A stretch of DNA of 32,511 nt from a virus. The notes under the pieces were generated by a model. The model was not told the origin of the DNA, searched no databases, and saw only the letters and a list, made by a program, of their open reading frames with translations. Both the position numbers and the translations under genes were made by a program. Each line of letters opens with the position of its first letter. Within the stretch, counting starts at the first letter, position 1. Shown here piece by piece: positions 706 through 32,369 of the stretch. The stretch lies in the IMG/VR virus record IMGVR_UViG_3300025632_000008; one strand, given 5' to 3'.

Positions 706-1157
706 GTTATAAGTTAGGTAAGCGCAGCCTTGATAGGTTGATCGGTGTTGATGAGCGCATGGTTGCTATTGTTAAGTATGCAATCAATGTAACTAAGCAG
801 GACTTTTCTGTGATCTGTGGGCTGCGCACCATCGAGGAGCAGAGAGCATTGGTTGCTAAGGGTGCAAGTCAGACAATGAAGTCAAAGCATATTGATGGAT
901 TGGCTGTTGATCTTATGGCTTACGTTGATGGCGGCAGATGGGAACTCAATCTCTATGACGAGATTGCTGACGCTATGGCAGAGGCCGCGCGTGAGGTAGA
1001 TGTTCCTATTCGTTGGGGTGCAGCTTGGTCTGTGCCAAACATTGCTCAGTACAGTGAGGGGAACATGGAAGATGCAATGAATAGTTACATTGATTTGCGC
1101 AGATCGCAGGGTCGAAGACCATTTATTGATGGACCTCACTTTGAGTTAGTTGTATAA
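702..1157 (+). CDS. Endolysin, peptidase M15 (VanY / L-Ala-D-Glu peptidase type)
   Basis: Motifs GLRTIEEQRALVAKGAS, SKHIDGLAVDL (H..D zinc ligands) and C-terminal DGPHFEL. ATGA overlap with the upstream membrane-protein gene. Confidence 0.85.
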   Translation: MSYKLGKRSLDRLIGVDERMVAIVKYAINVTKQDFSVICGLRTIEEQRALVAKGASQTMKSKHIDGLAVDLMAYVDGGRWELNLYDEIADAMAEAAREVDVPIRWGAAWSVPNIAQYSEGNMEDAMNSYIDLRRSQGRRPFIDGPHFELVV

Positions 1158-1278
1158 GATTCGAGTGGGTGGCTATCATCACAAGTAAGATCGACTTACC
1201 GCGGGACGGTGGTTGTTTAGCCTAAGATGACGTTGCTACCAAATGTGCCAACATTCAAATCAACGGCCACCCACACGA

Positions 1279-1965: not shown

Positions 1966-1983
1966 GTGTGCCTCTTATTAGTT

Positions 1984-2012
1984 AAAAAAAGGGACAGCCC
2001 TAAGACTGCCCC
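1984..2012 (-). terminator. Rho-independent terminator after the SSB-like gene
   Basis: Minus strand reads GGGGCAG-tcttaggg-CTGTCCC (7-bp stem with one G-U) followed by TTTTTTT. It lies between the stop at 2036 and the next start at 1965. Confidence 0.7.
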
Positions 2013-2035
2013 AGTTGTCGGAGAACACCTCCTTT

Positions 2036-2407
2036 CTAAAACGGTATGTCATCACCTTGCAAGGGGTCGGTTGTTGGCGCTGCGCCTCCCGACATCTTGT
2101 CGCTCACTTGGAATGACATATAAGGCTTACCATCTTTCATCTTCTTCCATCCGGCAAGGCGTTTGCTGTCACCAAATGGGCCACTGTAATCAGGAGCTGA
2201 CTCGTTCCCCTTCTTATCGTTCTCAAAGAAGGTTCCTGCTTTTTCGTAAACCTCGATGATCTGCTTGCCATCACGGGTTTGGTCGCGCACCAGCATCACC
2301 TTTTTATCTGCGCCCTCGACGTTGAGCTTGCCTTGCAGGATCATCTGCTGCGTAGGAAATGGGGTGAAGGCTGCGCCTCGGTTAGTGTCGTCGTATTGTT
2401 CTGCCAT
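2036..2407 (-). CDS. Putative ssDNA-binding protein, non-canonical, with an SSB-type acidic C-terminal tip (..GDDIPF)
   Basis: The ATG at 2407 is preceded by caaaggagcc. The C-terminus PTTDPLQGDDIPF matches the bacterial SSB tip DDDIPF. Adjacent to erf and the exonuclease. The longer 143-aa track ORF lacks an RBS. Confidence 0.6.
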   Translation of the reverse strand: MAEQYDDTNRGAAFTPFPTQQMILQGKLNVEGADKKVMLVRDQTRDGKQIIEVYEKAGTFFENDKKGNESAPDYSGPFGDSKRLAGWKKMKDGKPYMSFQVSDKMSGGAAPTTDPLQGDDIPF

Positions 2408-2434
2408 GCTTCTGGCTCCTTTGATTAAGTTAGT

Positions 2435-2461
2435 GAGGCGGTTCGTGGAACATGCCGCCTC
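2435..2461 (-). promoter_or_regulatory. Stem-loop in the leader of the SSB-like gene
   Basis: GAGGCGG-13 nt-CCGCCTC, a perfect 7-bp stem between the erf terminator and the SSB-like RBS. Confidence 0.35.
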
Positions 2462-2470
2462 GGTCATGCT

Positions 2471-2502
2471 AAAAAACTGAAGACGGTGGTATAATCTTCA
2501 GT
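2471..2502 (-). terminator. Rho-independent terminator after erf
   Basis: Minus strand reads ACTGAAGA-ttataccaccg-TCTTCAGT (8-bp stem) followed by TTTTTT, 12 nt after the erf stop. Confidence 0.7.
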
Positions 2503-2513
2503 ACCCACAATTC

Positions 2514-2954
2514 CTACCATCCGCCCGGTCCGGATGTATCTCCCGATGTTAAGCCCTTCGTGACTTGAACACCGCTCGATTGCTTGGCGGCTATGTTGCC
2601 GTCATCATCTTCTGTTGCAAGGCAAGCCATACCTAGCAAGCCGTAGCGTCTAGCGTACGTTATAGCGCTGCCTAAACCCTGCATGTCCTGCTTACTCAAG
2701 ACTAGGTAAACCTTGCTTGAGAAGGCTTCTCCTGAAGTGTGAAGTAGCTTTGTTTCTACATACACACCCAGCTCGTCACGGCCACAGGGTTGCATGACTA
2801 CGAACCCGTTGTCTTGGAACACGCTTGACGTAGCGTCAATTACTGCATCGAGAGATGCGTATTTGTTCTTGAAGTGTGGGTTTACGCTATCTTTCTTTAC
2901 CGTTTCCATAGCTTGCTGCGCTTTGAGTAGCGCCTTGATTGCTGTGTCACTCAT
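2514..2954 (-). CDS. erf: ERF-family single-strand annealing protein
   Basis: NPHFKNKYASLDAVIDA and GSAITYARRYGLLGMACLATEDDDG are typical ERF-superfamily motifs. Overlaps the exonuclease gene by 8 nt. Confidence 0.85.
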   Translation of the reverse strand: MSDTAIKALLKAQQAMETVKKDSVNPHFKNKYASLDAVIDATSSVFQDNGFVVMQPCGRDELGVYVETKLLHTSGEAFSSKVYLVLSKQDMQGLGSAITYARRYGLLGMACLATEDDDGNIAAKQSSGVQVTKGLTSGDTSGPGGW

Positions 2955-3753
2955 TGGTTGTTCTCCTTGTTATGCGGATGGCTCCGCGTTTGTCACGTTT
3001 AGCTGTGAGCTGATCGCAGTAAACTTCACGTTCATTGTCACCAACCATATCTTTGATTTGTTTTTTGGCTGACTCGAATGTCTTAGCTGCCGCTTCATTT
3101 TCTATGTATGTAATAGCGGCGTCCACAAATTGGTTGTCACTTGTGGCGTTGCGCTTGACCATGTTGTCCACCGACACCTTGTCAATGCTAAGTTGTATCG
3201 GCTGGTCATTACCAATTGGCTCTTCATCGCGAAGCACGTAACCCCAGAAATCTGACACCACTGCCCACATAGAATTGAAATACTCTTTGTTCCTGCTGAC
3301 ATAGGCTGACTCCCATTTGTTGTTGCCGAAGATAACAGATAAATACGCACCTTCTGCACCTGCAAGCTCTATGTACAGCTGCACTTGCGGCATGTAGTAT
3401 TCAATTACTTTGTCTAAAGTATTGTAGGCATTGGTGTGCTTGGCTTCGACAATATGTGCATCATTTATTTTGGTTTCGTTGTCTGTGTAAACCATGCCAT
3501 CAAACGTACCTTTAGCTGGTACGCCGTCAATCATATCGTTTTCAGTTAGCTGCTTGTTGTATAGGTTGAAGCCATACTCATGGGCAAACCACTCTAGATT
3601 AAAGTCCTCAGTGTAAACGCCCATCTGCACAGCGATGTTACGAGACAGATCTTCGGGCTCAACTCTCCCTGTCTTGACTTGCCATAACTCCAACCAGTTC
3701 CCCTGCATTATTTTTACGCAGTCGGAACCACCTATGAAACCCTTGCGTTCCAT
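2947..3753 (-). CDS. YqaJ-like (lambda Exo-type, PD-(D/E)XK) recombination exonuclease
   Basis: N-terminus GFIGGSDCVKIMQGNWLELWQVKTGR and later IVEAKH are typical of YqaJ viral recombinase exonucleases. Strong RBS aaaggagaacaac. Confidence 0.85.
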   Translation of the reverse strand: MERKGFIGGSDCVKIMQGNWLELWQVKTGRVEPEDLSRNIAVQMGVYTEDFNLEWFAHEYGFNLYNKQLTENDMIDGVPAKGTFDGMVYTDNETKINDAHIVEAKHTNAYNTLDKVIEYYMPQVQLYIELAGAEGAYLSVIFGNNKWESAYVSRNKEYFNSMWAVVSDFWGYVLRDEEPIGNDQPIQLSIDKVSVDNMVKRNATSDNQFVDAAITYIENEAAAKTFESAKKQIKDMVGDNEREVYCDQLTAKRDKRGAIRITRRTTNE

Positions 3754-3813
3754 GTTGTTCTCCTTTGTTATCTGATACTAGCCTATCGCTTATGTGCGAC
3801 TTAGGCAATATGA

Positions 3814-3830
3814 AGTGACGTTACGTCACT
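3814..3830. promoter_or_regulatory. Palindrome AGTGACG-TTA-CGTCACT (GTGACG-N3-CGTCAC motif, instance 1)
   Basis: Perfect inverted repeat 60-75 nt upstream of the exonuclease start. On the minus strand it is followed by CATATTGCC. Confidence 0.45.
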
Positions 3831-4092
3831 CGTACTTTCCGTACTTCTCAAAGTCTTCTTCGCTGAGGTGTTGGAATTTCTTGAGCCGCTGTTTTGTTAT
3901 ACCCTTAAGATATGGCTCACCTACCGCTTCGCCATTACGAATACGCTGCGCAATAATCTTATCGCTGTCCAGCACATAGCCAGACCTCTTGTACTCACGG
4001 GCCATGACAGGAGAGCTTGCTGCCTTACTGACATGAGCGTCCCATACAGATGGTCTTGCTGCATCACTGAGCTTGGTTGTTTTATATGTCAT
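3826..4092 (-). CDS. Hypothetical protein, 88 aa
   Basis: ORF with an ATGA overlap to the upstream 59-aa ORF. No recognisable motif. Confidence 0.6.
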   Translation of the reverse strand: MTYKTTKLSDAARPSVWDAHVSKAASSPVMAREYKRSGYVLDSDKIIAQRIRNGEAVGEPYLKGITKQRLKKFQHLSEEDFEKYGKYE

Positions 4093-4268
4093 GGTCTACC
4101 TACATCCATAAGGGTAACTGCTACCTGATCGTCACCCTTCAGTTCACTTATAAATTCTTCTTTGGCTATGCGTTCTGCGTTAGCAAGGGAGTCAGATACA
4201 ATCGTAATGTCCCTGAATATAATCCCTTCTACTCTGAGCGTATAAGCTATTGGATGTGCGCGACTCAT
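4089..4268 (-). CDS. Hypothetical protein, 59 aa (below the ORF-track cutoff)
   Basis: Hand translation gives MSRAHPIAYTLRVEGIIFRDITIVSDSLANAERIAKEEFISELKGDDQVAVTLMDVGRP. ATGA overlaps at both ends fill an otherwise empty gap. Confidence 0.55.
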   Translation of the reverse strand: MSRAHPIAYTLRVEGIIFRDITIVSDSLANAERIAKEEFISELKGDDQVAVTLMDVGRP

Positions 4269-4480
4269 GTTCGTACCTTCGATGGGCTGTAATACTGTGC
4301 AATGCGAGTGCCGCTAGCGGTCTTGACCATTACCTTGTCGATCTCCATGCCTTCGTCTTTGAGGTCTTTGATTCGCGCCGCTAATCTAAAGCATCCGAAT
4401 GTTTGCAGTGCATCAATTGCTGTGATGCGATAGCCTTGCTTGAGATACGCTTTAATCTCATCTGTTTGTTTTATAGTCAT
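4265..4480 (-). CDS. Small winged-HTH DNA-binding protein
   Basis: The pattern ITAIDALQTFGCFRLAARIKDLKDEGMEI..G.RIAQYY resembles small phage wHTH proteins (HTH_39-like, from memory). RBS aaggagaacaca. Confidence 0.6.
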   Translation of the reverse strand: MTIKQTDEIKAYLKQGYRITAIDALQTFGCFRLAARIKDLKDEGMEIDKVMVKTASGTRIAQYYSPSKVRT

Positions 4481-4490
4481 TGTGTTCTCC

Positions 4491-4961
4491 TTAGACTAAG
4501 TTTTCTTTTGCATACAATCCAATGAGTGCGGCTTCTGCTCGTCCGTCATCTTTAACTCGTTTGAAATAGTGTGCATGGTTAGGGAAGCAGAGCTTCGCTA
4601 GTCTTCTACTTTCACCCTTGTCTCTTGAAAGGTCAAAGTATTTCTTCCACTGACGTGGCGTCACATATTTTATAGGTAGCTTTGAAGCAACGATACCCAT
4701 CTCTAGCTGACCAAAGCCCTGTCCGAATCTGAATGTACTGCTAACACCTTGATTAGGCATAGCATTTACACTCTCGATCACAGCTAAGGCTGGTTTGTTT
4801 CTTTGGTTAGATAGGATTGAAAGTAACTCAGGTAAGTTAATTAATGTCTTACCCTTTGGTGATTGGGCTACTGGAATATCGTAGATAACTAAGCTGTCTG
4901 TTTCTGTTTCATATATGCTGACTGCTCCTGTAAATCCGGGGTCGATTCCATAAATGAGCAT
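4491..4961 (-). CDS. RuvC-like Holliday junction resolvase
   Basis: GIDPGFTGAV at the N-terminus, VIESVNAMPNQGVSSTFRFGQGFG, VTPRQWKK and DDGRAEAALIG follow the RuvC-fold catalytic layout. Confidence 0.8.
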   Translation of the reverse strand: MLIYGIDPGFTGAVSIYETETDSLVIYDIPVAQSPKGKTLINLPELLSILSNQRNKPALAVIESVNAMPNQGVSSTFRFGQGFGQLEMGIVASKLPIKYVTPRQWKKYFDLSRDKGESRRLAKLCFPNHAHYFKRVKDDGRAEAALIGLYAKENLV

Positions 4962-4971
4962 GTCATTCTCC

Positions 4972-5247
4972 TTACCAGTCGGTTGGTGGCTTTGCGTTTG
5001 ACTCGATGCTAGATTCCCACGCGCCAGCCTGTAGCTTGACGCTAGGTTTCTTTAATCGTTTCTTGTTTGGTTTTGTCTTTGATGTTGGCTCTTGCCATTT
5101 GTCATTTACATAACAGCTCATGCAAATGAACCAGTGCTTCTCCATTGAGCGACCACTGTTTGTTTTAAGTACTGCTACAAAGAAATGTGTTGCCACTTGG
5201 CAAGCTACGCATATAGCTGCTTTACCTTTTAGTGATCGTGATGTCAT
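4972..5247 (-). CDS. Hypothetical protein with a CxxC...CxxC (zinc-ribbon-like) signature
   Basis: CVAC and CMSC pairs lie 26 residues apart, with a basic C-terminal half. The RBS is weak. Overlaps the upstream gene by 26 nt. Confidence 0.45.
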   Translation of the reverse strand: MTSRSLKGKAAICVACQVATHFFVAVLKTNSGRSMEKHWFICMSCYVNDKWQEPTSKTKPNKKRLKKPSVKLQAGAWESSIESNAKPPTDW

Positions 5248-5470
5248 AGCCTAAAGCATCCAACCAACAGTTGAGCATAAAGCCAGAGGGTATTCGTTTG
5301 TGTGTTTCCCACTTGTGTATTAAGGATTCTGTGCATCCTATTTTATAGGCTAATTTTTCTTGACTTAACTTTTGCTTTGATCGAGCGGCGCTCAACATTT
5401 CTACCATTAGCTCGTAGTTCTTTGGTATTTTCAACGGCGTCTTGTATCTGTCTAACTTGCTCGATGGCAT
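5222..5470 (-). CDS. XRE/Cro-type HTH transcriptional regulator
   Basis: KLSQEKLAYKIGCTESLIHKWETHKRIP is a classic HTH_3 core. RBS gaggataagtt precedes the ATG at 5470. Confidence 0.75.
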   Translation of the reverse strand: MPSSKLDRYKTPLKIPKNYELMVEMLSAARSKQKLSQEKLAYKIGCTESLIHKWETHKRIPSGFMLNCWLDALGYDITITKR

Positions 5471-5627
5471 AACTTATCCTCAGCGCAGTATAAAACCTCA
5501 ACTCCGTATCTTTCTTTATGGTTCTGTAGTAGGTAGAACGTGGGATATTAGCGCGACTAAAAGCTTTAAGCAGAGACACGTTAGCTGCCTCCGCTTGTTC
5601 AGTTATTGTTTCAAGATACGATTTCAT
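5343..5627 (-). CDS. Putative small HTH protein; its C-terminal 42 codons overlap the XRE gene out of frame
   Basis: AANVSLLKAFSRANIPRSTYYRTIKK resembles a resolvase/excisionase-type HTH. There is no clear SD upstream, only the palindrome gcattaatgc. Confidence 0.45.
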   Translation of the reverse strand: MKSYLETITEQAEAANVSLLKAFSRANIPRSTYYRTIKKDTELRFYTALRISYAIEQVRQIQDAVENTKELRANGRNVERRSIKAKVKSRKISL

Positions 5628-5646
5628 GCCGCATTAATGCAGCAAT

Positions 5647-5832
5647 CTATTCGTCGAAGTCAACATCCCAGACTTCGATTTCTCCTGATCCGTTGCAGTT
5701 GTCGCATGGTTCTGACTCAAAGTATGGCTCAGGTGCATCGTTGTATGATGTCCTTACTGGCATTGACTCCACTTCAATGAAGCCATCACCACTACATTCT
5801 TTGCAAGCCACTGTGATTCTGTACTGTTTCAT
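5647..5832 (-). CDS. Small DnaJ-type zinc-finger protein (two CxxCxGxG repeats)
   Basis: CKECSGDG and CDNCNGSG are present, with an acidic C-terminus. ATGA overlap with the upstream gene. Confidence 0.7.
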   Translation of the reverse strand: MKQYRITVACKECSGDGFIEVESMPVRTSYNDAPEPYFESEPCDNCNGSGEIEVWDVDFDE

Positions 5833-6035
5833 TGGTATGGTATTTCATCCTCTACAATTGGGGCTACATAGTTCTCCTCCCATGCAGCTGTGCCTCTGCG
5901 GATAAACTTATCTCGATCAAACTTTGGATTAGTTTTCTCAAGTTCATCTGCAATGCTATGAAGGTGAGTGGGCCACGGTACAAGTGGCCCTAATGTATCT
6001 GCTAAATACTCAAAGTGTTGTCGTGACATACGCAT
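5829..6035 (-). CDS. Hypothetical protein, 68 aa, acidic tail ..VEDEIPYQ
   Basis: ORF tightly packed in the operon. No known motif. Confidence 0.55.
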   Translation of the reverse strand: MRMSRQHFEYLADTLGPLVPWPTHLHSIADELEKTNPKFDRDKFIRRGTAAWEENYVAPIVEDEIPYQ

Positions 6036-6038
6036 TAC

Positions 6039-6233
6039 TTAATCCTCCATTATCTCATCTAAAGTTGTTTCAGTATTTAGCGTGTGCTTGTTGCGCATCT
6101 CATCAAACACAGAAGCGGGGCTTTCTTTAAAGAGATGCTCATATATGCCCTCATCCTTTACATAGTCAGGCACTTCATATTCTGGATACCAAGTGTCTGT
6201 GCGTGTAAGTTTCAGTTTAATTGTCCTAGTCAT
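6039..6233 (-). CDS. Hypothetical small acidic protein, 64 aa
   Basis: RBS taaggagatggcgta. Rich in D and E. Confidence 0.6.
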   Translation of the reverse strand: MTRTIKLKLTRTDTWYPEYEVPDYVKDEGIYEHLFKESPASVFDEMRNKHTLNTETTLDEIMED

Positions 6234-6245
6234 TACGCCATCTCC

Positions 6246-7094
6246 TTAGATTACGTTCTCACCTACCATTGAGGTAAACAGTTTGTGATTCATTGCATTG
6301 CTGATTGCTATCTCGCGATTGTAACGTGCAATCTGTGGTGACTTAAGGTCATTGGTATGCGTGGCCCAGTGGGTCAGGCAGTTATACAATGCCCACTTGT
6401 TGTGACCGAGATCCATCTTCTCACGATCCCAACCTGAGATAAGATTCTCAAGTTGCTTCTCGTTTGTCTTGGTCACTTGCTGCTGCTTGGTTACTACCTT
6501 GCATATGGTTGACCGAAAGAACTGCTCGACCTGATCGTTGTTTAATCTTGTCTGCATCCATGATTGCCACTGCTTGCTCCGTCCCATGAAATGTTCCGCA
6601 CCACCTATGATCTTGGCAGCGCTCCCGTCTACGTTAACTGACGCTGTGTGCTTGAAGCGTGACTTCGCAATAGCATCTGGTGTTGTGCATCCATTCAAGC
6701 ACCACAGTCTGAGACCATTGGCTTGCTGAGAAAAGGACCATGATCCGTCATAGCTATTGAAGAAGCTGACACGGAACTGAACGTAGTCACCTACTGCTGG
6801 CTGCTGCACTAGATCAGGAAAGATGATCTCACCTCGTAGCTTACGGCCATCTTCGATTACATCTACGTTGACCTCATAGTCACTGGTCAGCTTGCTTGCT
6901 TTAACTCCATCAAGGATAGAGTTGACTACATCATCGTGCGGTATCATTCGATAGCGTGACCCATGCAAGCCGAGTGTCTTGCCTGTGTCTGTGCGTACGA
7001 TGCACTTGTGATCTGGAATAAGCTCACCGTCTTGAGTAAAGACTGGCTGCTCTTCTACTGGAAAGTTGTAGCTGTTGGATTGAAAGTCTAGCAT
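6246..7094 (-). CDS. DUF932/DUF945-like phage/plasmid protein
   Basis: The patterns GSRYRMIPHDDV, FFNSYDGSWSF and GLRLWCLNGC match the DUF932 family layout as I remember it. Confidence 0.7.
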   Translation of the reverse strand: MLDFQSNSYNFPVEEQPVFTQDGELIPDHKCIVRTDTGKTLGLHGSRYRMIPHDDVVNSILDGVKASKLTSDYEVNVDVIEDGRKLRGEIIFPDLVQQPAVGDYVQFRVSFFNSYDGSWSFSQQANGLRLWCLNGCTTPDAIAKSRFKHTASVNVDGSAAKIIGGAEHFMGRSKQWQSWMQTRLNNDQVEQFFRSTICKVVTKQQQVTKTNEKQLENLISGWDREKMDLGHNKWALYNCLTHWATHTNDLKSPQIARYNREIAISNAMNHKLFTSMVGENVI

Positions 7095-7282
7095 AGCGCG
7101 TTCTCCCTTGCGTCTATTGTTTCTGAGATCATAAACCTAAGATCGTTCCTATCTTTGCCGAACATTTTGATGTTCATTTCATTGCCATTACCATCAACAA
7201 AGCTGATTTCTTTGACGGCAAAGTTGTCATGGATTGTTACTTTAACCCTGACGTTTGTTACTCTGTGTGCTGATACTTCCAT
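7088..7282 (-). CDS. Hypothetical protein, 64 aa; first gene of a leftward operon
   Basis: Strong RBS aaggagaacaca. Overlaps the next gene by 7 nt. Confidence 0.6.
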   Translation of the reverse strand: MEVSAHRVTNVRVKVTIHDNFAVKEISFVDGNGNEMNIKMFGKDRNDLRFMISETIDARENALC

Positions 7283-7312
7283 TGTGTTCTCCTTAGAAGT
7301 TTATTTAAAGTT

Positions 7313-7346
7313 TATACTATAGTATATGGCGGGACGCTTTCTGCAA
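7313..7346 (-). promoter_or_regulatory. Candidate leftward promoter (TTGCAG-16-TACTAT) overlapping the 14-bp perfect palindrome TATACTATAGTATA (7313-7326)
   Basis: The minus strand reads ttgcagaaagcgtcccgccatatactatagtataaac. The palindrome covers the -10 candidates. It lies 30-60 nt upstream of the start at 7282. Confidence 0.3.
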
Positions 7347-7376
7347 CATTTGGAATGAATCCATTCATAAGTTTGG

Positions 7377-7463
7377 TTAGCCCAGCGCAACGAAACCTGT
7401 TACAGAAATTACCAGAACCGCGATATACATAACGAAGATTAGCTTGTCCTCATGGTCGCCCAT
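7377..7463 (-). CDS. Possible 28-aa membrane micro-protein
   Basis: aagggggcttcaacATG, then MGDHEDKLIFVMYIAVLVISVTGFVALG (one TM). The 78-aa track ORF upstream of this ATG runs through a hairpin and repeats and looks spurious. Confidence 0.4.
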   Translation of the reverse strand: MGDHEDKLIFVMYIAVLVISVTGFVALG

Positions 7464-7478
7464 GTTGAAGCCCCCTTG

Positions 7479-7505
7479 TTGATAGAGTTGATAGAGTTGA
7501 GAGTG
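7479..7505. repeat. Tandem 9-bp repeat: TTGATAGAG x2 plus degenerate TTGAGAGTG
   Basis: Read directly. Related copies are GATAGAGTTGA at 6915-6925 and TTGATAGAGT at 8382-8391. Confidence 0.7.
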
Positions 7506-7507
7506 GT

Positions 7508-7525
7508 GAGGGGCCGAAGCCCCTC
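7508..7525 (-). terminator. GC-rich hairpin with a UUCG tetraloop after the 137-aa gene (no U-tract)
   Basis: The minus strand reads GAGGGGC-TTCG-GCCCCTC, 7 nt after the stop at 7532. The missing T-run makes it a stabiliser, processing site or weak terminator rather than a canonical one. Confidence 0.4.
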
Positions 7526-7531
7526 TGAAGG

Positions 7532-7945
7532 TTATGATGCGAGGATGCGCTTGATTTCGGTGTCGAGGCCAAGGCCGTCTGAAGTGAAGGTGCGCTTGGG
7601 CTTGTGTTGCCACACTTCGCCTTGGGTAACGATGGTATAAACTTCTAGGTCAGCATTGTGACGCTCAGTAAGTTCATCCATCTCGCGTTCCATCGAAAGA
7701 TAGAGGCGAGCTTTCTTTTCAATGCGGATGTCTACGACCTCTGAGCCTTTGGCTGGAGCGAGTTCAGCCATGTCGTTCTTGACGATCGACATCTGTTCGC
7801 CCTTCCATTCGATTGAATTGAAGCTGGTGTAGCAAGCGTCCTTGGCAATTTGAGTGCGAAGGTATTCATTGTCAGAACCTTTATGATGGTTAATTACATC
7901 TAGTTTGAGTTGAACGAGTGTCGGTGATGTGTTCTTCTTAGTCAT
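7532..7945 (-). CDS. Hypothetical protein, 137 aa; first leftward gene next to the non-coding island
   Basis: The ATG at 7945 is preceded by acaggagaactagac. The track's longer 169-aa version would read through this RBS. Confidence 0.65.
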   Translation of the reverse strand: MTKKNTSPTLVQLKLDVINHHKGSDNEYLRTQIAKDACYTSFNSIEWKGEQMSIVKNDMAELAPAKGSEVVDIRIEKKARLYLSMEREMDELTERHNADLEVYTIVTQGEVWQHKPKRTFTSDGLGLDTEIKRILAS

Positions 7946-8555
7946 GTCTAGTTCTCCTGTAGAATCGAGAGGTCCGTCCCCTCGGTGAAGACCCAGAGAC
8001 ATGCCCACAAATCCCAGCTTGCTGGGGCTTGACGTTCGCAACTGCTTTCCTCACCAGACGCAGGCTGGACTAAGCACAGAAGAGCCACACACACTCAGAT
8101 CTGAGCCGCCAATGGAAAGTAGTTGCGAATGTTTTGTGGAGCTTGTCACGCAGGGCAAGACGAGGGGCGGCCGAGCGATACAGGAGAACGGCAAACATGG
8201 CTAAGACAGAACACTGAGCCGTAAGCGAGTTCAACTTAAACTTGATGTTTTTTAGTAGGCCATCATTTTAGAAGGTTCTGACAATGGATGCCTTTGCCGA
8301 AGATTGCAGGACGTTGGCTACCCAGCTGAGATTCAAGAGGATGGAGGGGTGAGCAGTTGGAGGGAGGAAGGGGCGATATGGTTGATAGAGTGATCCAAAG
8401 GTGTAGAGGTTGTAGACATTGAAAAGAGAGCTTGCAGATAGCTTGTGGTGGAGCGTGAGACTTACTGAGTGTCGCAAGGATGACTTGGAGTTTAGAGCAT
8501 TGTTAGACAAGCGTGGCAACCAGCCCAAGTGGATCTTTCTTTAGCGGGCTTGGCC

Positions 8556-15612: not shown

Positions 15613-16422
15613 ATGGCTAACACAATTGACGTAGCATTTATCAAACAGTTTGAAACCGATGTGCATCTTGCCTACCAGCGCATGGGTTCCAAACTTCGCA
15701 ATACAATTCGTACCACAAACACTTCTGCTTCTGTTTCTCGCTTTCAGAAGATTGGTACAGGCGCAGCCTCCACTAAGTCACGCAATGGTAACGTGAGCAC
15801 TATGGAATTGGCGCACACCACAGTTGAAGCAACAATGGCTGACTTCTACGCTGCTGAGTACATTGATAAGCTCGACGAGCTAAAGATCAATATCAACGAG
15901 CGTCAAGCTGTTGCTGAATCTGCTGCTTCTGCATTGGGTCGTAAGACTGATGAAATCATCATCACTGCAATGGACGCGGGTGCAAACACTACTCAAATCG
16001 CTGATACAACTGGCGCATTGGGTAAAGCTGACTTGCTTACATTGTTCCAAACTTTTGGCGCAGCCGACATTCCAGAGGATGGACAGCGTTATCTTGCTAT
16101 GTCCCCTGCTGGTTTTGCTGACTTGTTCAACATTAACGAGTTTGCTTCTTCGGACTATGTAGGTCCACAGCAACTTCCGTTTGCTGGCGGCATGACAATG
16201 AAAGAGTTCTTGGGCTTCAAGATCTTCTCAACGTCTGCTGTAGCTGGTGGCAAAAACTTTGCTTACCACATGCGAGCTGTTGGCTTGGGTGTTAACTCTG
16301 ACGTTAAGACTGAAGTTAACTATGTACCTGAGAAAGTCGCACACCTTGCCACATCAATGATGTCAATGGGTTCTGTTGTCATTGATGACAATGGCGTCTA
16401 CGAGGTTCTCGACAATAACTAA
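15613..16422 (+). CDS. Major capsid protein, T7 gp10-like (HK97 fold), 269 aa
   Basis: FIKQFETDVHLAYQR...SVSRFQKIGTGAA...ESAASALGRKTDEIIITAM parallels T7 gp10 FLKVFGGEVLTAFAR...SAQFPVLGRT...ESLAMAADGAVLAEI. Followed by a strong terminator. Confidence 0.8.
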   Translation: MANTIDVAFIKQFETDVHLAYQRMGSKLRNTIRTTNTSASVSRFQKIGTGAASTKSRNGNVSTMELAHTTVEATMADFYAAEYIDKLDELKININERQAVAESAASALGRKTDEIIITAMDAGANTTQIADTTGALGKADLLTLFQTFGAADIPEDGQRYLAMSPAGFADLFNINEFASSDYVGPQQLPFAGGMTMKEFLGFKIFSTSAVAGGKNFAYHMRAVGLGVNSDVKTEVNYVPEKVAHLATSMMSMGSVVIDDNGVYEVLDNN

Positions 16423-26529: not shown

Positions 26530-28164
26530 ATGACGATTAACCTTGCCGATAACTCGCCTCGAATATCATATTCGGTAGCGCAGGGCGTAACTCAGTCCAC
26601 GTTTACTGTGCCGTTTGAGTTCTTTGCTGAAGAAAGCCTTAACGTATATGTTGATGGTGTTCTCAAGGCTTTAACTACTGATTACACTGTAACTGGTGGT
26701 GACGGCTCTACTGGCTCGGTTGCTATATCGGTTACAGGCGCATCCGGTGGCTCAACGGTTGTTATCACTAGGGAAATTTCACTTGAGCGTACGGCAGACT
26801 TTCCAACATCTGGGCCTTTTCAGATTGCCGCACTCAATACAGAACTTGACCGCATCATAGCTATTGCTGCTGACTTGAATGATGGTGTAGCGCGTTCCCT
26901 TCAGCTTACAGATTTTGATATTGCTGCTAACTTAACGCTTCCAACCGTTGATGATCGCAAGGGTAAGACGCTTGCATTTAATTCAGTAAGCGGCGCTGTT
27001 GAAGCTGGTCCATCTATCTCTGATACACAAACTGTATCTAACGCATCGGCAGACATTGCGTTGCTTGCTGACACTCAAGACGGAACATTAGCTACTAATG
27101 CAATTACTAATCTAAATAGCATTCGTACTGATGTAACTACAGTTTCGGGCATATCTGCAAATGTGACTACTGTAGCAAGCAATAATGCTAATGTTACTAC
27201 AGTAGGAACTAACATTGCTGACGTGAATACAGTTAGCGGCATATCAGCGAATGTCACAACAGTTTCAGGCATAAGCGCAGATGTTTCAACTGTAGCATCA
27301 AACTATACAGATGTTGTTACAGTCTCTGGTATTTCAGGGAATGTAACTATTGTTGCAACAAACCTTACAGATGTAAATAACTTTGCTAACCGCTATCAAA
27401 TAAGTGCGACAGAGCCAAGCCCTGCTAGTGAAGGCTTGCTTTGGTACGATAGCGCGAATGACATTATGAAGGTTTACAATGGCGGCTCATTCCAAAATGC
27501 TGGATCATCGATCAATGGTACATCGGAGCGCCAAACATACACAGCCACGGCAAGCCAAACGACATTTGCGGCAACATATGATTCTGGTTTTGTGGATGTT
27601 TATTTAAACGGCGTTAAGCTAATTGATGGCACTGACTTTACTGCAACTGATGGGTCTAATGTTGTTTTGTCATCTGGCGCGGCGGCTGGCGATAGCGTTG
27701 ACATCGTTGCTTATGGTACGTTTAATCTGGCTGACGTTTACACGCAGGCGCAATCTGATGCTCGATATGTTAATGTGTCGCATACTGGTGATGTAGGAAT
27801 TACCGGGGATCTAGGAATTACTGGGGAACTTATAGCCGACAGCTATAACGAGACCTACGCGGCGCTTACTGCTGCTGCTACGGTAGATGTAGACTGTGAG
27901 ACGGGAAACGTGTTTGCTCTTACGACAGATCAAAACACCACGTTTACATTTAGCAACCCACCAGCGACAGGCACTGCCTATGGCTTTACCCTGAAGCTCA
28001 CGGCTGGCGGCACGCATACGATCACATGGCCTGCATCCGTTGACTGGGCTGGGGCTACTGCACCTGACGCTCCCGCTAGTGGCGAGACTAATTTGCTTGT
28101 CTTTATTACTCACGATGGCGGCACAACGTGGTACGGCTTCCAAGGTGGGGCGGCAATGGCATGA
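26530..28164 (+). CDS. Tail fibre with a T7 gp17-like N-terminal adaptor domain, decapeptide repeats and a C-terminal tip domain
   Basis: The N-terminus (FTVPFEFF..LNVYVDGVL..DYTV...VVITRE..FPTSGPFQIAALNTELDRI) follows the podovirus fibre N-domain pattern. Nine xVxTVxxxxx repeats follow. RBS aaggaa. Confidence 0.8.
   Translation: MTINLADNSPRISYSVAQGVTQSTFTVPFEFFAEESLNVYVDGVLKALTTDYTVTGGDGSTGSVAISVTGASGGSTVVITREISLERTADFPTSGPFQIAALNTELDRIIAIAADLNDGVARSLQLTDFDIAANLTLPTVDDRKGKTLAFNSVSGAVEAGPSISDTQTVSNASADIALLADTQDGTLATNAITNLNSIRTDVTTVSGISANVTTVASNNANVTTVGTNIADVNTVSGISANVTTVSGISADVSTVASNYTDVVTVSGISGNVTIVATNLTDVNNFANRYQISATEPSPASEGLLWYDSANDIMKVYNGGSFQNAGSSINGTSERQTYTATASQTTFAATYDSGFVDVYLNGVKLIDGTDFTATDGSNVVLSSGAAAGDSVDIVAYGTFNLADVYTQAQSDARYVNVSHTGDVGITGDLGITGELIADSYNETYAALTAAATVDVDCETGNVFALTTDQNTTFTFSNPPATGTAYGFTLKLTAGGTHTITWPASVDWAGATAPDAPASGETNLLVFITHDGGTTWYGFQGGAAMA
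27130..27399 (+). repeat. Nine tandem 30-bp (10-aa) in-frame repeats within the tail fibre
   Basis: DVTTVSGISA NVTTVASNNA NVTTVGTNIA DVNTVSGISA NVTTVSGISA DVSTVASNYT DVVTVSGISG NVTIVATNLT DVNNFANRYQ (res 201-290). Confidence 0.85.
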
Positions 28165-29435
28165 GCGTAACAAGTAAACTTACAGTTATTGGTGCGGCTG
28201 GAGGTCAGTCAGGGCCAGAATATTGGGCTTCAAGGATTGAGAGAACAACAAATGACGACATATTCTTTCTGGGTGTTTGTTGTGATAGTGCCGACAATAT
28301 TATTGCTGTTGGCCATAGGGATTACTCAAACCCAAAAGGATTTATTATAAAATATGATAAGTTTGGGGACGTTCAGTGGCAAGTAGAGTTAGATGTAGGG
28401 GTTACAGCCCAATGCCTTAAGGTGGCTACTGATAGCAATGATAATATTTACGTTACTGCGGGTGGCTTTTACAGCAATTACAATAGAAGTTTTCTTTTGA
28501 AGTATGACGCTGCTGGGAATTTCCAGTGGTCTAGGTCGTATTCAAATAATCAGTTTTATGTTTTTAGAAATGTTGACGTAGACGATAATGACTACATTTA
28601 TGTGTCAGGAAGCGATGCTTCTTCTCGTTGTATGTGGGCGAAATACGATGCAAGCGGAACATTGCAAAACAGCAAAAGTCTCTACAATGGGACTCTTTAT
28701 TCCGAAAGTTTTAGGCAAGGCGTTGTGGTTCCATCCACTGGTGAATGGATACAAGCTGGGAATACAAGTCAAAGCGGCGTTGACTCAGACGGGACTATGG
28801 TCAAGATAAACAGTAGTGGAGGAATATCTTTTCGCAAAAGATATTTTGGAACAAACACTCAGATTTGTTATAGTGCTGGGGCTAAGAGCGATGGGTCAGC
28901 GTTTTACACTTTTATTTTTGACCTCAACGGCGGCCCAACAACATACTACCGCATAGTAAAACTAAATTCTTCTGGCTCTCTTGTGAGATCGGTTTATACT
29001 GCTGAGCCATATACTGGAGATATGGCAGTTGACAGCAATACCCGTGTTTTAATCGCTGGATCAACTGGCTTTATATCTTGTGATGAATACTTAAATGCTG
29101 GAAGCACTTTTTCTCGAAGTTTTAGCGGCTTCAATCCAAACGCAATAGCTGTGGACAGTAATAATAACATCATATTTGCTGGTAAGACTGGCGCATCAGC
29201 CTTTCGTGCCGACGAAGGTGCTGTGATTAAATTGCCTGCCGATGGGTCGGGAACAGGCACTTGGGATTGGCTTACTTATAGCACTGGAACAGGAGGCATA
29301 TCTGGAACGGTAGGTGTGTCAAACACAAGCACAACTGCCTATATGAACACGCCCAATGGCTCTTTTTCAAGCATAGACCCCTTCACAAAAACTGACCCAG
29401 CTTACACAACTGAACTTTATGAAATAGAGCCATAA
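28161..29435 (+). CDS. Beta-propeller repeat protein (SBBP-like), probable distal receptor-binding protein
   Basis: ATGA overlap with the fibre stop. Five to six repeats of D.(N/D)DNIYV.G...(x)..KYD..G...W, for example DSNDNIYVTAGG..LLKYDAAGNFQWS. Confidence 0.6.
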   Translation: MSVTSKLTVIGAAGGQSGPEYWASRIERTTNDDIFFLGVCCDSADNIIAVGHRDYSNPKGFIIKYDKFGDVQWQVELDVGVTAQCLKVATDSNDNIYVTAGGFYSNYNRSFLLKYDAAGNFQWSRSYSNNQFYVFRNVDVDDNDYIYVSGSDASSRCMWAKYDASGTLQNSKSLYNGTLYSESFRQGVVVPSTGEWIQAGNTSQSGVDSDGTMVKINSSGGISFRKRYFGTNTQICYSAGAKSDGSAFYTFIFDLNGGPTTYYRIVKLNSSGSLVRSVYTAEPYTGDMAVDSNTRVLIAGSTGFISCDEYLNAGSTFSRSFSGFNPNAIAVDSNNNIIFAGKTGASAFRADEGAVIKLPADGSGTGTWDWLTYSTGTGGISGTVGVSNTSTTAYMNTPNGSFSSIDPFTKTDPAYTTELYEIEP

Positions 29436-29445
29436 GGAGACTGCA

Positions 29446-29901
29446 ATGCTAGTCAAAATTACAAACGGTAATGTAGACACATACCCCTATTCCGCAGGGC
29501 AACTACGCCGTGATAATCCTAACACATCGTTTCCCAAGCGCATCCCAGATGAGATGCTTGAGAGCTATGGCTTATACACTGTTGTATATACCGACATGCC
29601 TAGCATTGATGACCGTACACAGAAGGTCGAGCAAGAGGCCACACCATCTTTGGTCTCTGGGGCTTGGACTATTGGCTGGTCTACTTCAGATAAGACTACT
29701 GAGGAGATAGCAGAGTATGATGCTGATGCAGCTGCAAATGTTCGTGCGGAACGTGATGGTCTACTAGCGCGATCAGACTGGACGCAAGTAGCTGACGCCC
29801 CTGTAGATGCTACAGCATGGGCAACCTATCGTCAGGCACTGAGGGACATTACAGACCAAGCTGGTTTTCCTAATGACATCAACTGGCCCACACAACCTTA
29901 A
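29446..29901 (+). CDS. Tail fibre assembly chaperone-like protein, copy 1
   Basis: C-terminus RDGLLARSDWTQ....AWATYRQALRDIT...FPNDINWPTQP matches the phage tail assembly chaperone pattern. Paralog of 31069..31527. Confidence 0.7.
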   Translation: MLVKITNGNVDTYPYSAGQLRRDNPNTSFPKRIPDEMLESYGLYTVVYTDMPSIDDRTQKVEQEATPSLVSGAWTIGWSTSDKTTEEIAEYDADAAANVRAERDGLLARSDWTQVADAPVDATAWATYRQALRDITDQAGFPNDINWPTQP

Positions 29902-29916
29902 TCAGGAGATAACACT

Positions 29917-30324
29917 ATGAGCAACGCAAGACTTCTCAGTGACATTATTTCCACTGATGGTTCCATCCAACCTTTGTCGTATTCTGAGACTTATGCCGCA
30001 GTAACGTCTACTTCTAACGCTACTACAGTAGACTGCGAAGCTGGTAATACGTTTGGTCACACGCTGACAGAGAACACTACGTTCACCTTCAGCAACCCAC
30101 CTGCAAGTGGCATAGCTTACACGATGAGCATTGAGATCATCCAAGATGCAGGTGCTTCTGGCTTTACAGTTACATGGCCTACGTCTGTGGACTTCCCTGC
30201 CGCTACAGCACCCACACTAACGGACACTGCCAGCGCGGTAGATGTGTTCGTATTTTCCACCCATGACGGTGGCACAACTTGGTACGGCTTCACGGCAGGT
30301 CAAGCAATCGCAACACCAGCATAA
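29917..30324 (+). CDS. Stand-alone paralog of the tail-fibre C-terminal tip domain
   Basis: SETYAAVT..VDCEAGNTF..NTTFTFSNPPASG.AY...TVTWPTSVD..ATAP...VFVFSTHDGGTTWYGF aligns with fibre res ~438-540, about half identical by eye. Confidence 0.7.
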   Translation: MSNARLLSDIISTDGSIQPLSYSETYAAVTSTSNATTVDCEAGNTFGHTLTENTTFTFSNPPASGIAYTMSIEIIQDAGASGFTVTWPTSVDFPAATAPTLTDTASAVDVFVFSTHDGGTTWYGFTAGQAIATPA

Positions 30325-30336
30325 GGAGCTATAAAT

Positions 30337-31041
30337 ATGGCGACTAAGAAAAAGATGCTGCAAGCTGCTGCTGGTGGTGTTTCTCCTGTAGAGTATGTCT
30401 ATAGTGGAATTACATCCCAGATTAATGGCCTATCAATGACCAGACCTATATCTAACGTAAAAGCTGGTGATTTAATTCTTGTATTTCACTCAGCGGCGTC
30501 AGGTACTAGTGGTAGTCAGTTGGGTGTTATGAGTTTGAATACTACTGGGTACACTCTTCTTAGAGCTTACTTTACATCAAATTCAAACAACTATGACACT
30601 AACCTAGAGATATACGGTAAAATAGCCGATGGTACTGAAACATCTGTTGTCTCTAATGGTGGATTAAATAGTTTGTTTGGTTCAGCTTTAACTGTTGGTG
30701 TCTACAGAGGAACAGATGGTACTCTACCAGATACTTCTCGTTTTACTGTTAATGACAGTGGAAACAACGATGATGTTATCTTCCCAACTACAACAACTAT
30801 TGAGGGAGGGGATTTACTAGTTGTCTTTGGCGCTAATGCCACAAACGTCCCAAGTTTTACTGCGCCAACTGACTTGGACGAGTGGATATACAAAGGTGCT
30901 AATGATACATATGATAACACTTTCGGTCTTGGTTCTATTTTAATTACAGACCAAACATCCTTTACTGCAAACACATGGGTTGGCGGAAGCAATTCAAATT
31001 CGTTTACTCATGTTGGCGGCTACGTCAGACTAAGGCCATAA
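30337..31041 (+). CDS. Hypothetical protein, probable second receptor-binding / distal tail protein
   Basis: Its position mirrors 28161..29435. The N-terminal AAGGVSPVEYVYS resembles AAGGQSGPEYWAS of that protein. S/T/N/G-rich. Confidence 0.5.
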   Translation: MATKKKMLQAAAGGVSPVEYVYSGITSQINGLSMTRPISNVKAGDLILVFHSAASGTSGSQLGVMSLNTTGYTLLRAYFTSNSNNYDTNLEIYGKIADGTETSVVSNGGLNSLFGSALTVGVYRGTDGTLPDTSRFTVNDSGNNDDVIFPTTTTIEGGDLLVVFGANATNVPSFTAPTDLDEWIYKGANDTYDNTFGLGSILITDQTSFTANTWVGGSNSNSFTHVGGYVRLRP

Positions 31042-31068
31042 ACTAGCAAACTCAAGGAGAGCACAACG

Positions 31069-31527
31069 ATGTATGCTAAAATCACAAACGGTCAAGTCGA
31101 TCAATACCCATACACAGTGGGTAATCTACGCCGTGACAATCCTAATGTATCTTTTCCAAAGACCATCCGCACAGCAACTATGGCTGGATACGGTATGTAC
31201 CCTGTTAGCTACGAGGCTGCGCCAGACTACGATCCGTTGACGCACCGCCTACAGCACAGCAGTATTCCTTCGTTGGTGGATGGCGAGTGGAAGCTGACCA
31301 AGACTGTCGTTGCCCTTACTGAAGATCAGATCGCAGCGGCCACTGCTGCTAAAGCCAAGGAGATGCGCAGTGATCGTGATGCAAAGCTGGCAGACACAGA
31401 TTGGATGGCGCTTTCAGATGTGACCATGAGCGCAGGCATGACAACCTATCGTCAGGCTTTGCGTGACATTACTGCGCACGCTAACTGGCCTAATTTGGAA
31501 GAGGCCGACTGGCCGACTAAGCCCTAA
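31069..31527 (+). CDS. Tail fibre assembly chaperone-like protein, copy 2
   Basis: KITNGQVDQYPYTVGNLRRDNPNVSFPK ... RDAKLADTDWMA ... YRQALRDITAHANWPN..DWPTKP. Paralog of 29446..29901. Confidence 0.7.
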   Translation: MYAKITNGQVDQYPYTVGNLRRDNPNVSFPKTIRTATMAGYGMYPVSYEAAPDYDPLTHRLQHSSIPSLVDGEWKLTKTVVALTEDQIAAATAAKAKEMRSDRDAKLADTDWMALSDVTMSAGMTTYRQALRDITAHANWPNLEEADWPTKP

Positions 31528-31537
31528 GGAATAAGAC

Positions 31538-31732
31538 ATGGATAAACGTACAGTAGCCTCCGCGCATGATCGCATTGATGGCCTTGAGAAGGAGGTTATC
31601 GCTATAAAAACTGAAGTAAAAATCCAATTCAAAGATCTGTTCGGTCGCGTCAAGCGCATGGAAAGCATCATGATTGCAGCAACCGCCTCGATCATTGGCT
31701 TGCTGGTCGCTGTGTTGACGAAGATGGGGTGA
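31538..31732 (+). CDS. Small tail-anchored membrane protein (XhlA-like architecture)
   Basis: N-terminal coiled coil HDRIDGLEKEVIAIKTEVK and C-terminal TM IMIAATASIIGLLVAVL. The family call is inferred from architecture only. Confidence 0.45.
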   Translation: MDKRTVASAHDRIDGLEKEVIAIKTEVKIQFKDLFGRVKRMESIMIAATASIIGLLVAVLTKMG

Positions 31733-31905
31733 TGATCTGTGTGCTTGCCTTTGTCTCATTCAACCACGCTTGGACAGAAGGCGGGAACCAGTTGTTCCAA
31801 TACTGTTTCTATAACTGCGGCGCTGCAAAGAATGGCTTGTGGTACGATAGGGTCTATCGTGTCAGCTACTTGTTTGTCTGCCCAGCAAGGTTCGTTGAAA
31901 CATGA
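31732..31905 (+). CDS. Hypothetical 57-aa Cys/aromatic-rich protein (below the ORF-track cutoff)
   Basis: Hand translation gives MICVLAFVSFNHAWTEGGNQLFQYCFYNCGAAKNGLWYDRVYRVSYLFVCPARFVET. TGATG and ATGA overlaps with both neighbours. Confidence 0.45.
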   Translation: MICVLAFVSFNHAWTEGGNQLFQYCFYNCGAAKNGLWYDRVYRVSYLFVCPARFVET

Positions 31906-32369
31906 TTGATCCTATCTCAGCCCTTTCCATCGCAGCATCCGCTGTATCAAGCGCTAAGACTTTACTGGCTGCTGGCCGGGATGCGTCAGGCGCATTGAGC
32001 AAGTTTGCTGGAGCGGTGAGTGACGTGAATTACGCGGCCGAGAAGGCCAAGAACCCGAGCGTCTTTGCATCATTGACTGGCTCTGCTGAACAAGCTGCAA
32101 TAGATGCTTTCTCTGCGCAAAAGCGTATGCAGGCTATGAAGAAAGAGATTGAAACAATCATCATGTTTCAGCACGGCCCGAAAGGTTTAGAAGAATACAA
32201 GGACACTCTCCGCAAGATCAGGGCGCAGCGCAAGAAGACTGCGTACCGCAAAGCTGAGATCAAGGAGGCTTTGATAATGTGGGTTGTCGGCGGGATTATT
32301 GTTTTGGCTGGGGTCGCTGGATTGGCGGCTACACTTTGGCTCATCGGTAAGCAACAAGGCAAATGGTAG
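31902..32369 (+). CDS. Hypothetical C-terminally membrane-anchored protein, 155 aa
   Basis: A-rich helical N-terminal part, basic stretch, and C-terminal TM IMWVVGGIIVLAGVAGLAATLWLIG. Confidence 0.55.
   Translation: MIDPISALSIAASAVSSAKTLLAAGRDASGALSKFAGAVSDVNYAAEKAKNPSVFASLTGSAEQAAIDAFSAQKRMQAMKKEIETIIMFQHGPKGLEEYKDTLRKIRAQRKKTAYRKAEIKEALIMWVVGGIIVLAGVAGLAATLWLIGKQQGKW

Follow-up and report, generated by a model that had tools for sequence, protein, structure and literature searches.

Two candidate socket, plug-adhesin and chaperone cassettes at the tail fibre locus of a T7-like podovirus

The viral record IMGVR_UViG_3300025632_000008 was analysed as a single stretch of 32,511 nucleotides (nt; hereafter referred to as the window), which contains the structural region of a marine T7-like podovirus, with genes for the terminase, the major head protein, tail tubular proteins A and B, an internal virion protein and a portal-type protein labelled head-tail adaptor in PHROG. 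Upstream from the tail fibre gene lie those of the T7-like tail tube and the internal virion protein. The fibre gene opens a series of six tightly packed open reading frames (ORFs), all on the + strand, that can be read as two consecutive cassettes, each with a small conserved domain (hereafter referred to as the socket), a variable middle protein beginning with a short peptide (hereafter referred to as the plug) and a chaperone-like protein. The six ORFs were confirmed at the positions given in a first-pass annotation of the window, and each is preceded by a Shine-Dalgarno-like sequence or an ATGA overlap. The tail fibre (26530..28164; 544 amino acids, aa) has a weak T7-type N-terminal anchor (PF03906 Phage_T7_tail, E = 3.3e-4, below the cutoff), a repeat-rich shaft and a C-terminal socket, and matches phrog_21412, phrog_9017 and phrog_1640 (tail fibre or tail protein). 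This first socket (socket 1, type B; fibre residues 437-544, 27838..28161) was recognized by our own hidden Markov model (HMM) of the tip domain (E = 3e-44) and contains, in the alignment, the segment ...APDAPASGE.... The start of the next gene, encoding the 424-aa middle protein (28161..29435), overlaps the fibre stop codon in an ATGA; its product, candidate adhesin 1, consists of plug B, MSVTSKLTVIGAAGG (nt 28161-28205), and an SBBP beta-propeller body. Chaperone 1 (29446..29901; 151 aa) has a PF16778 domain at residues 96-151 (E = 8.2e-23) and matches phrog_4912 (tail fiber assembly). The second cassette begins with a stand-alone 135-aa adaptor (29917..30324), made up of a putative anchor peptide (residues 1-14, nt 29917-29958) and socket 2 (type A; residues 21-132, nt 29977-30312; tip HMM E = 3e-56). 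It continues with the 234-aa middle protein (30337..31041), candidate adhesin 2, in which plug A, MATKKKMLQAAAGG (nt 30337-30378), precedes a body from a small, diverged family, and it ends with chaperone 2 (31069..31527; 152 aa; PF16778 domain at residues 96-152, E = 4.1e-12).

Residues 432-544 of the fibre and the 135-aa protein were 51% identical over 118 aa (E = 4e-32), bearing out the proposal of the first-pass annotation that the two contain the same domain. At the profile level, phrog_9017 was matched by both copies (E = 9e-16 for the fibre and 6e-15 for the 135-aa protein) and phrog_7760 by the socket family (E = 7e-16), with >2000 and 927 homologues. A precomputed match of the family to PF26209 (Phage_phiTE_241_C) was faint, and the local copy of Pfam gave no match for the domain. 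A census yielded 137 socket ORFs in 96 sources, 41 of which had two sockets. Fusions of the domain to N-terminal fibre anchors involve at least 10 different anchor families, in phages of different morphotypes and probably of different hosts. In the window fibre, it occupies the final 108 of the 544 residues, past the shaft and not directly after the N-terminal anchor; in the 135-aa adaptor, it directly follows the anchor peptide. In rV5-like phages (L004:6617-7285, Escherichia phage DrSchubert bas50_0025), the socket lies after a Tail_spike_N (TSP1/Gp66) N-terminal domain in a 222-aa protein, annotated in DrSchubert as a "sialidase domain protein", and the next gene is that of the lateral tail fibre, the product of which has no plug-like N-terminus.

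With a 126-sequence alignment of both socket types, AlphaFold2 (AF2) modelled adaptor residues ~30-130 as a beta-rich domain with a predicted local distance difference test (pLDDT) score >90. Searches of PDB sequences with the tip, both as a single sequence and as a profile, gave no match at E<=10, and a Foldseek search of the PDB with the pLDDT >90 socket model gave no significant match, with no gp10 or CBA120 tailspike (TSP) chains at E<=10. The best Foldseek match in the PDB was the Pa223 capsid spike (9ny6; E = 0.058, probability 0.91, template modelling score 0.40, 14% identity). In BFVD, the model had 183 fold matches, mostly C-terminal ends of phage fibres. The possibility of a T4gp10-like branching domain was rejected, on the basis of hhalign probabilities (15-sequence profile) of 0.08% against KP32 gp37 and 0.33% against T4 gp10 and of the likewise negative Foldseek search. 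As modelled, the socket is predicted to be a fibre-end fold of ~110 aa with no solved homologue.

Across all loci, the gene starting -3 to +17 nt from the stop codon of a socket gene nearly always opens with a plug. This conserved peptide of 13-16 aa is either of type A, MATKKK[ML]LQAAAG, or of type B, MS-x-x-S-[KR]-L-x-x-x-AAAG, and is followed by a Gly-rich linker and then by unrelated bodies. The 234-aa protein opens with MATKKKMLQAAAG; its first 13 residues are identical to those of CRP-4 gp52 and the remainder is unrelated. The two middle proteins of the window, which the first-pass annotation had described as unrelated, indeed showed no significant overall similarity, but they have a short N-terminal ..AAGG.. 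motif in common. A simple plug motif was detected in 90 of 123 post-socket genes and in 5 of 1561 background ORFs, four of the latter being post-socket genes missed by the gene caller, and a plug HMM recovered only further true post-socket genes. For the reverse test, IMG/VR was searched with nothing but a degenerate DNA pattern of plug A, which retrieved >100 loci, and a socket was present directly upstream in 99 of the 100 loci with enough upstream sequence. The exception, L143, shares a contig with L049, in which an endonuclease VII ORF comes after the tip gene. This ORF (L049:7351-7794; 147 aa; PF02945, E = 5e-27), located directly after the socket gene, looks like a homing-endonuclease-type insertion between the socket and plug genes. 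The 13 codons of plug A occurred in 27 DNA versions, with a proportion of synonymous differences (pS) of 0.66, so the peptide is conserved at the protein and not at the DNA level; the proportion of nonsynonymous differences is biased, the sequences having been selected by peptide. The plug, with its KKK and AAAG segments, was also considered as a signal peptide, and this was rejected on sequence inspection: the hydrophobic stretch extends over only ~6 residues and is followed by the Gly-rich linker.

The identities of sockets and plugs were correlated over 99 unique pairs (Mantel r = 0.70, 0 of 999 permutations). The MATKKK plug was found after none of the 16 type-B sockets, defined by ...APDAPASGE..., and after 51 of the 70 type-A sockets. 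Fifteen of the 20 distinct two-tip arrangements combined a B plug with an A plug, with sockets that were mutually 46-60% identical. This pairing would fit two orthogonal ports, with linkage contributing to the correlation.

The bodies behind the plugs are variable. The beta-propeller assignment made for the 424-aa protein in the first-pass annotation is supported by SBBP repeats (PF06739, E = 5e-8, 33.2 bits against a cutoff of 20.5), and the body at this position in relatives is just 24-34% identical or unrelated. The 234-aa protein belongs to no Pfam or PHROG family and had no match in a PDB sequence search; a word-indexed search of 5.8 billion entries returned two homologues and an exhaustive HMMER search returned 101 diverged representatives. 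The members of this wider family (hereafter referred to as mid234) have B-like plugs, except for the longer proteins, which have none, and their common body begins at a ...(E/Q)(Y/F)VGG motif. On contig L210, a mid234 body with 88% identity is preceded by a different plug, MSLLSSLMG..., behind a third type of socket (~40% identical). A partial protein on this contig (L210:3-602), the body of which resembles the "AWDLS" family of middle proteins, has a socket of its own at the C-terminus and is followed, with an ATGA overlap, by the mid234-family protein; a body ending in its own socket suggests a further layer, with possible daisy chains of distal proteins. The post-socket bodies form an assortment of ligand-binding folds; in Pfam, they matched SBBP, SGL/lactonase, FG-GAP and WD40-like propellers, Gp38 adhesin, Lcl_C, six copies of Laminin_G_3 and DUF7483, the last of which was not named in any paper found in the literature search. 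A 326-aa post-socket protein of L011 belongs to the Gp38 family (PF05268, E = 9.4e-8, 32.6 bits against 25) and lies behind the same plug; neither the 424-aa nor the 234-aa protein of the window matched PF05268 (T-even Gp38 adhesin). In the other two-cassette genomes, socket 1 (69-94% identity; 46% in L011), the adaptor (78-93%) and chaperone 1 (42-86%) are retained and both bodies are replaced.

On the strength of these comparisons, we propose, with confidence somewhat above even, that the window encodes two orthogonal cassettes of socket, plug-adhesin and chaperone, in which the socket docks the plug of the product of the next gene and the bodies are the real adhesins. The ~110-aa domain at the fibre C-terminus and in the 135-aa protein would then be a docking socket rather than a receptor binder. 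The gene directly after each socket would encode the distal binder, with its ~13-aa plug and Gly-rich linker docking non-covalently on the cognate socket and carrying a freely exchangeable ligand-binding body, and the PF16778 protein would help to fold or assemble the preceding body. Socket 1, at the end of the T7-like fibre, would receive the beta-propeller protein with plug B, and the 135-aa adaptor, with its anchor peptide and socket 2, would take the plug-A 234-aa protein, such that the virion would display two different adhesins without cross-docking. The first-pass annotation had suggested a modular, possibly dual-specificity apparatus in which a conserved small domain presents interchangeable binders, and the comparative evidence, from the diversity of the anchor families to the plug and variable body found downstream, supports this view.

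Our confidence in this proposal goes no higher because plug-socket binding, incorporation into the virion and receptor recognition by the middle proteins are all inferred, as is attachment through the anchor, and several observations weigh against it. Linkage is by itself enough to make neighbouring genes co-vary, and the Mantel correlation is therefore no proof of contact. About 10% of the sockets precede genes without a plug-like peptide (for example, in the rV5-like phages, CRP-603 gp58 and L048/L052), and the frequencies given above are biased, as the loci were gathered via type-A sockets or plug A. In an AF2 single-chain construct of adaptor, natural spacer and plug, the plug was modelled as a low-confidence helix (pLDDT ~57), like the N-terminal peptide of the adaptor, with no confident docking; this monomer, with the natural 5-residue spacer, an X for the stop codon and no alignment depth for the plug, is a weak test, and an earlier run with 31 near-identical sequences reached an overall pLDDT of 52. 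Finally, the anchor peptide of the adaptor is not plug-like.

The domain might alternatively be a true receptor-binding tip, as the term "tip domain" of the first-pass annotation could suggest. The downstream proteins would then be unattached accessory enzymes, assembly factors or soluble proteins, and their N-terminal peptide would serve some other purpose. The location of the domain at the extreme C-terminus of the fibre, the usual place of receptor-binding domains, is what such a role would lead one to expect, and the sockets lacking a plug-bearing neighbour and the undocked plug of the AF2 surrogate count on the same side. Nevertheless, conservation within the cassette is highest in the domain and it is the downstream proteins that vary, the reverse of the pattern shown by a receptor-binding tip; the fusion of the domain to so many anchor types across morphotypes is unlike the behaviour of a specificity determinant; the bodies encoded downstream resemble lectins, propellers or the Gp38 adhesin; and plug and socket types co-vary. 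We therefore regard a receptor-binding tip as unlikely, and the earlier term as misleading in that sense.

The two chaperone-like proteins, which the first-pass annotation had paired in the same way as the two tip domains, are indeed 45% identical over their full length (E = 5e-43). Both belong to PF16778 (Phage_tail_APC; 80.5 bits for the 151-aa and 46.2 bits for the 152-aa protein, against a gathering score of 26.6) and to PHROG tail fibre assembly families, annotations from which we assign them a putative chaperone activity. Neither matched PF02413 (Caudo_TAP, Mu/P2-type) at E<=0.1. The C-terminus of chaperone 2 matches a nuclear magnetic resonance structure, 2KZ6 (E = 2e-4), its C-terminal ~45 aa are nearly identical to those of CRP-9 gp43, and the protein is 66-77% identical to the chaperones found after "AWDLS" propeller bodies. 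The N-terminal half of these chaperones is of two types, which track the body family and not the plug: MSEYRNR... accompanies DUF7483, and M[FY][AV]KxTNG... accompanies propeller, "AWDLS" and mid234 bodies. A PF16778 protein follows 46 of the 52 complete plug genes, and fibre chaperones of the Tfa/gp38 type commonly act on specific fibre segments; both points favour an explanation in which the PF16778 chaperone recognizes the N-terminal peptide as a tag, or the peptide gives a start signal for trimerisation or assembly, and adjacency to the socket reflects conserved gene order only. We consider this quite improbable, as plug A is found with either type of chaperone N-terminus, a chaperone is absent altogether after some plug genes (such as those of the second cassettes of L011 and L012), a socket lay upstream in all but one of the loci of the reverse test, and plug type follows socket type. 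The plug thus tracks the socket, not the chaperone, as expected for the proposed docking.

Identity of the stand-alone adaptor to the C-terminal ends of CRP-4 gp53 and CRP-9 gp45 is 75-80%, versus ~51% to the socket of its own fibre. Orthologues of 132-135 aa with 76-93% identity were found in dozens of marine metagenome clusters, and at least 12 distinct genomes, with several backbones, retain this length. The gene has its own ribosome-binding site and nearly always follows the chaperone gene of the first cassette. Its median pairwise ratio of nonsynonymous to synonymous substitution rates (dN/dS) was 0.09, with dS values of up to ~1.5, and the adaptor is, by this measure, under purifying selection. 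The first ~12-14 residues, MSNARLLSDIIS, belong to a conserved class, M[ST]xAR[DL]LxDxI[SA], that heads 50 of 120 type-A and 18 of 120 type-B socket proteins of 132-233 aa, as well as full-length fibres, among them CRP-9 gp42, where fibre repeats come after MSKARDLADFISTG..., and CRP-2 gp51. On L209, a peptide of this class precedes a socket of the window's fibre type (92% DNA identity) in a 187-aa protein. The 135-aa protein thus looks like a fibre reduced to an anchor peptide and a socket. The first-pass annotation had stated that the free-standing copy lacks any virion-anchoring N-terminus, which this peptide class speaks against, and had left open how the copy is incorporated; a partial answer is that it is a conserved, selected adaptor with an N-terminal peptide of its own. 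A plug-like docking of this N-terminus on socket 1 was rejected, its plug HMM score not being above background. That module 2 is a functionless recombination scar, its 135-aa ORF being a truncated remnant, from the 3' end of the fibre gene of a donor, imported together with an adhesin cassette, could be argued from the resemblance to the 3' ends of the CRP-4 and CRP-9 fibre genes and from the potential of conserved socket and plug sequences to act as homology arms for cassette exchange, but is very improbable, being largely refuted by the selection data and opposed by the retained length, the ribosome-binding site and the N-terminal peptide held in common with intact fibres.

Some short socket proteins (CRP-4 gp53, L001:3210-3827, and those of L049, L050 and L055) open instead with MANIKISQMTAAASASG..., a plug-like start by its plug HMM score of 12.6 bits, the highest of the non-plug classes. 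Proteins of this MANIKISQMTAAASASG type may serve as adaptors from plug to socket; the gene upstream from CRP-4 gp53 showed no socket.

The description of the two modules as a tandem duplication holds for the gene order and not for a simple duplication event. The DNA shared by the modules consists only of patches of 70-85% identity and <=91 nt, the longest exact shared word being 16 nt, and a recent local duplication is contradicted by the greater closeness of the adaptor to the CRP-4 and CRP-9 fibre ends than to its own fibre. Judging from these comparisons, the modules are an old pair of distinct types, which also occur together on other backbones. The same order, with a protein ending in the socket domain, a protein of 650-900 aa and a PF16778 chaperone, is found in roseophages CRP-4, CRP-9 and CRP-603, the published papers on which give these genes no annotation beyond fibre or hypothetical, and the succession of socket, body and PF16778 chaperone recurs in dozens of phages from metagenomes. 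On siphovirus-like contigs that include a tape-measure gene, a first cassette encodes a 372-aa socket protein, a 424-aa SBBP protein and a 151-aa chaperone, and a second encodes a 135-aa protein, a 663-aa DUF7483 protein and a 166-aa chaperone. The complete two-cassette layout is also present on the contig with an SU10-type adaptor (L011). We suggest, more tentatively and with confidence a little short of even, that a common plug-and-socket standard exists in marine podo-, sipho- and myovirus-like phages, in which a ~13-aa peptide of orthogonal types would allow unrelated adhesins to be swapped and stacked, the 135-aa adaptor would provide a second independent port, and bodies carrying their own socket would permit chains.

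The adsorption module (27838-31527) and the rest of the genome differ in their relatives. The nearest cultured match of the capsid protein (window 15613-16422) was in Pelagibacter phage EXVC031P (52.6%), and the socket, plug and chaperone resemble those of phages of Roseobacter RCA strains. No close genome was found in the phage collection, a single 165-nt megablast match to CRP-13 being obtained. Among 185,579 species genomes, the only tip carriers were two contigs of metagenome-assembled genomes (MAGs; L207 and L208, labelled Verrucomicrobiales and Methanobacteriota), giving no prophage or host clue, and one type-B socket homologue (P0179) is recorded on a contig of 72.5 Mb. The sockets on these three contigs are probably mis-binned or contaminating phage DNA.

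Within the fibre gene, an 18-nt tandem repeat of 2.1 copies (27790-27827) codes for GDLGITG repeats directly before socket 1, and the shaft contains imperfect (V)SGISANVTTV-like peptide repeats at residues ~195-270. Chaperone 1 and the 135-aa gene are in one reading frame, used by four of the six cassette genes, and are separated by one TAA stop and five codons (29899-29919); we found no evidence of read-through from the first into the second. A promoter and terminator scan across the cassettes gave results at chance level. Past chaperone 2 (31538-32369) lie a 64-aa ORF, its product hydrophobic at the C-terminus, and a 155-aa ORF (phrog_32327; weak match to Phage_holin_8, E = 0.008). In relatives, a Peptidase_M15_4 endolysin gene directly follows the second chaperone gene; none was seen in the remaining ~1 kb of the window. 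At the other end, positions 1-8000 form an early region, mostly on the minus strand, with a RecE-like exonuclease at 2947-3753 (phrog_434), and the sign of the GC/AT skew flips near 7.5-8 kb, where gene orientation changes.

If the proposed docking is correct, host range in many abundant, mostly uncultured marine phages, among them relatives of roseophages and pelagiphage-like podoviruses, would depend on the gene that follows the fibre gene and not on the fibre itself, which would change the choice of receptor-binding proteins (RBPs) for host prediction. It would also add, to the standard based on a T4gp10-like domain and a conserved peptide, a second, structurally unrelated docking standard that is short, defined by its sequence and apparently orthogonal in at least two types. 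Pairs suitable for testing are available in culturable phages (CRP-4 gp53/gp52/gp51 and CRP-9 gp45/gp44/gp43).

No paper describing a plug-and-socket system of this kind was found in the literature search, and the closest functional parallels come from better-known phages. In the branched RBP systems of Klebsiella and Escherichia coli podoviruses and their relatives (KP32, K11, KP34, K1-5/SP6, G7C and CBA120), RBP1 bears a T4gp10-like branching domain and RBP2 a conserved N-terminal docking peptide (PMC6872550; PMC13352976). The cassettes described here share with these systems a conserved docking domain on the primary protein, bodies exchanged by horizontal transfer, two specificities per virion and adjacent genes, and the secondary protein likewise opens with an N-terminal peptide that is short and conserved, although this likeness is analogous only. 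The candidate docking domain is located at the C-terminus of the fibre here and just after the N-terminal anchor in KP32-type systems, and it has no sequence or fold similarity to T4 gp10 or KP32 gp37. The plug sequence is also unrelated (KP32 gp38 opens with MLDNFNQPKG), each body is usually accompanied by a PF16778 chaperone gene, and the second port is a separate, minimal adaptor. Docking has been demonstrated experimentally for the KP32-type proteins, whereas here it is deduced from sequences.

In the long tail fibres of T2, T6 and S16, a separately encoded adhesin, Gp38, is carried on the distal end of gp37 (PMC3157838; PMC12032242). As proposed for the window, a separate protein, encoded by the gene directly after that of the fibre, is the distal adhesin and is attached by its N-terminal part to the fibre's C-terminal tip. 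These adhesins are of modular build and vary widely, and a Gp38-family body is present in the relative L011. However, the middle proteins of the window are not Gp38 homologues, the socket is unrelated to gp37, the attachment element would be a ~13-aa peptide with a Gly linker rather than a folded domain, and there are two tandem cassettes. The fibre-chaperone cassettes of Mu, P2 and lambda, including S-U and S'-U' of Mu, also pair a small chaperone with the variable distal specificity element that it follows, with two alternative cassettes adjoining one another. The chaperones of the window belong to PF16778, with no match to PF02413, and its specificity element would be a separate protein and not the C-terminus of the fibre itself. 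Unlike those of Mu, the two cassettes of the window point the same way and each has start signals of its own, so both are probably expressed together, and not switched by inversion.

Among solved structures, only the capsid spike gp52 of Pseudomonas phage Pa223 (PDB 9ny6), with a TNF-like C-terminal knob (bioRxiv 10.1101/2025.06.11.659172), resembles the socket model at all in fold. The two have in common a position at the C-terminal end of a trimeric, fibre-like phage protein, but the similarity is below significance, with 14% identity, and no docking function has been described for gp52, making it a lead only. Overall, the proposed cassettes resemble the KP32-type and T2/S16 systems in function and would differ from them in the fold and position of the docking domain, the sequence of the plug, the PF16778 chaperone and the use of a minimal adaptor as a port.

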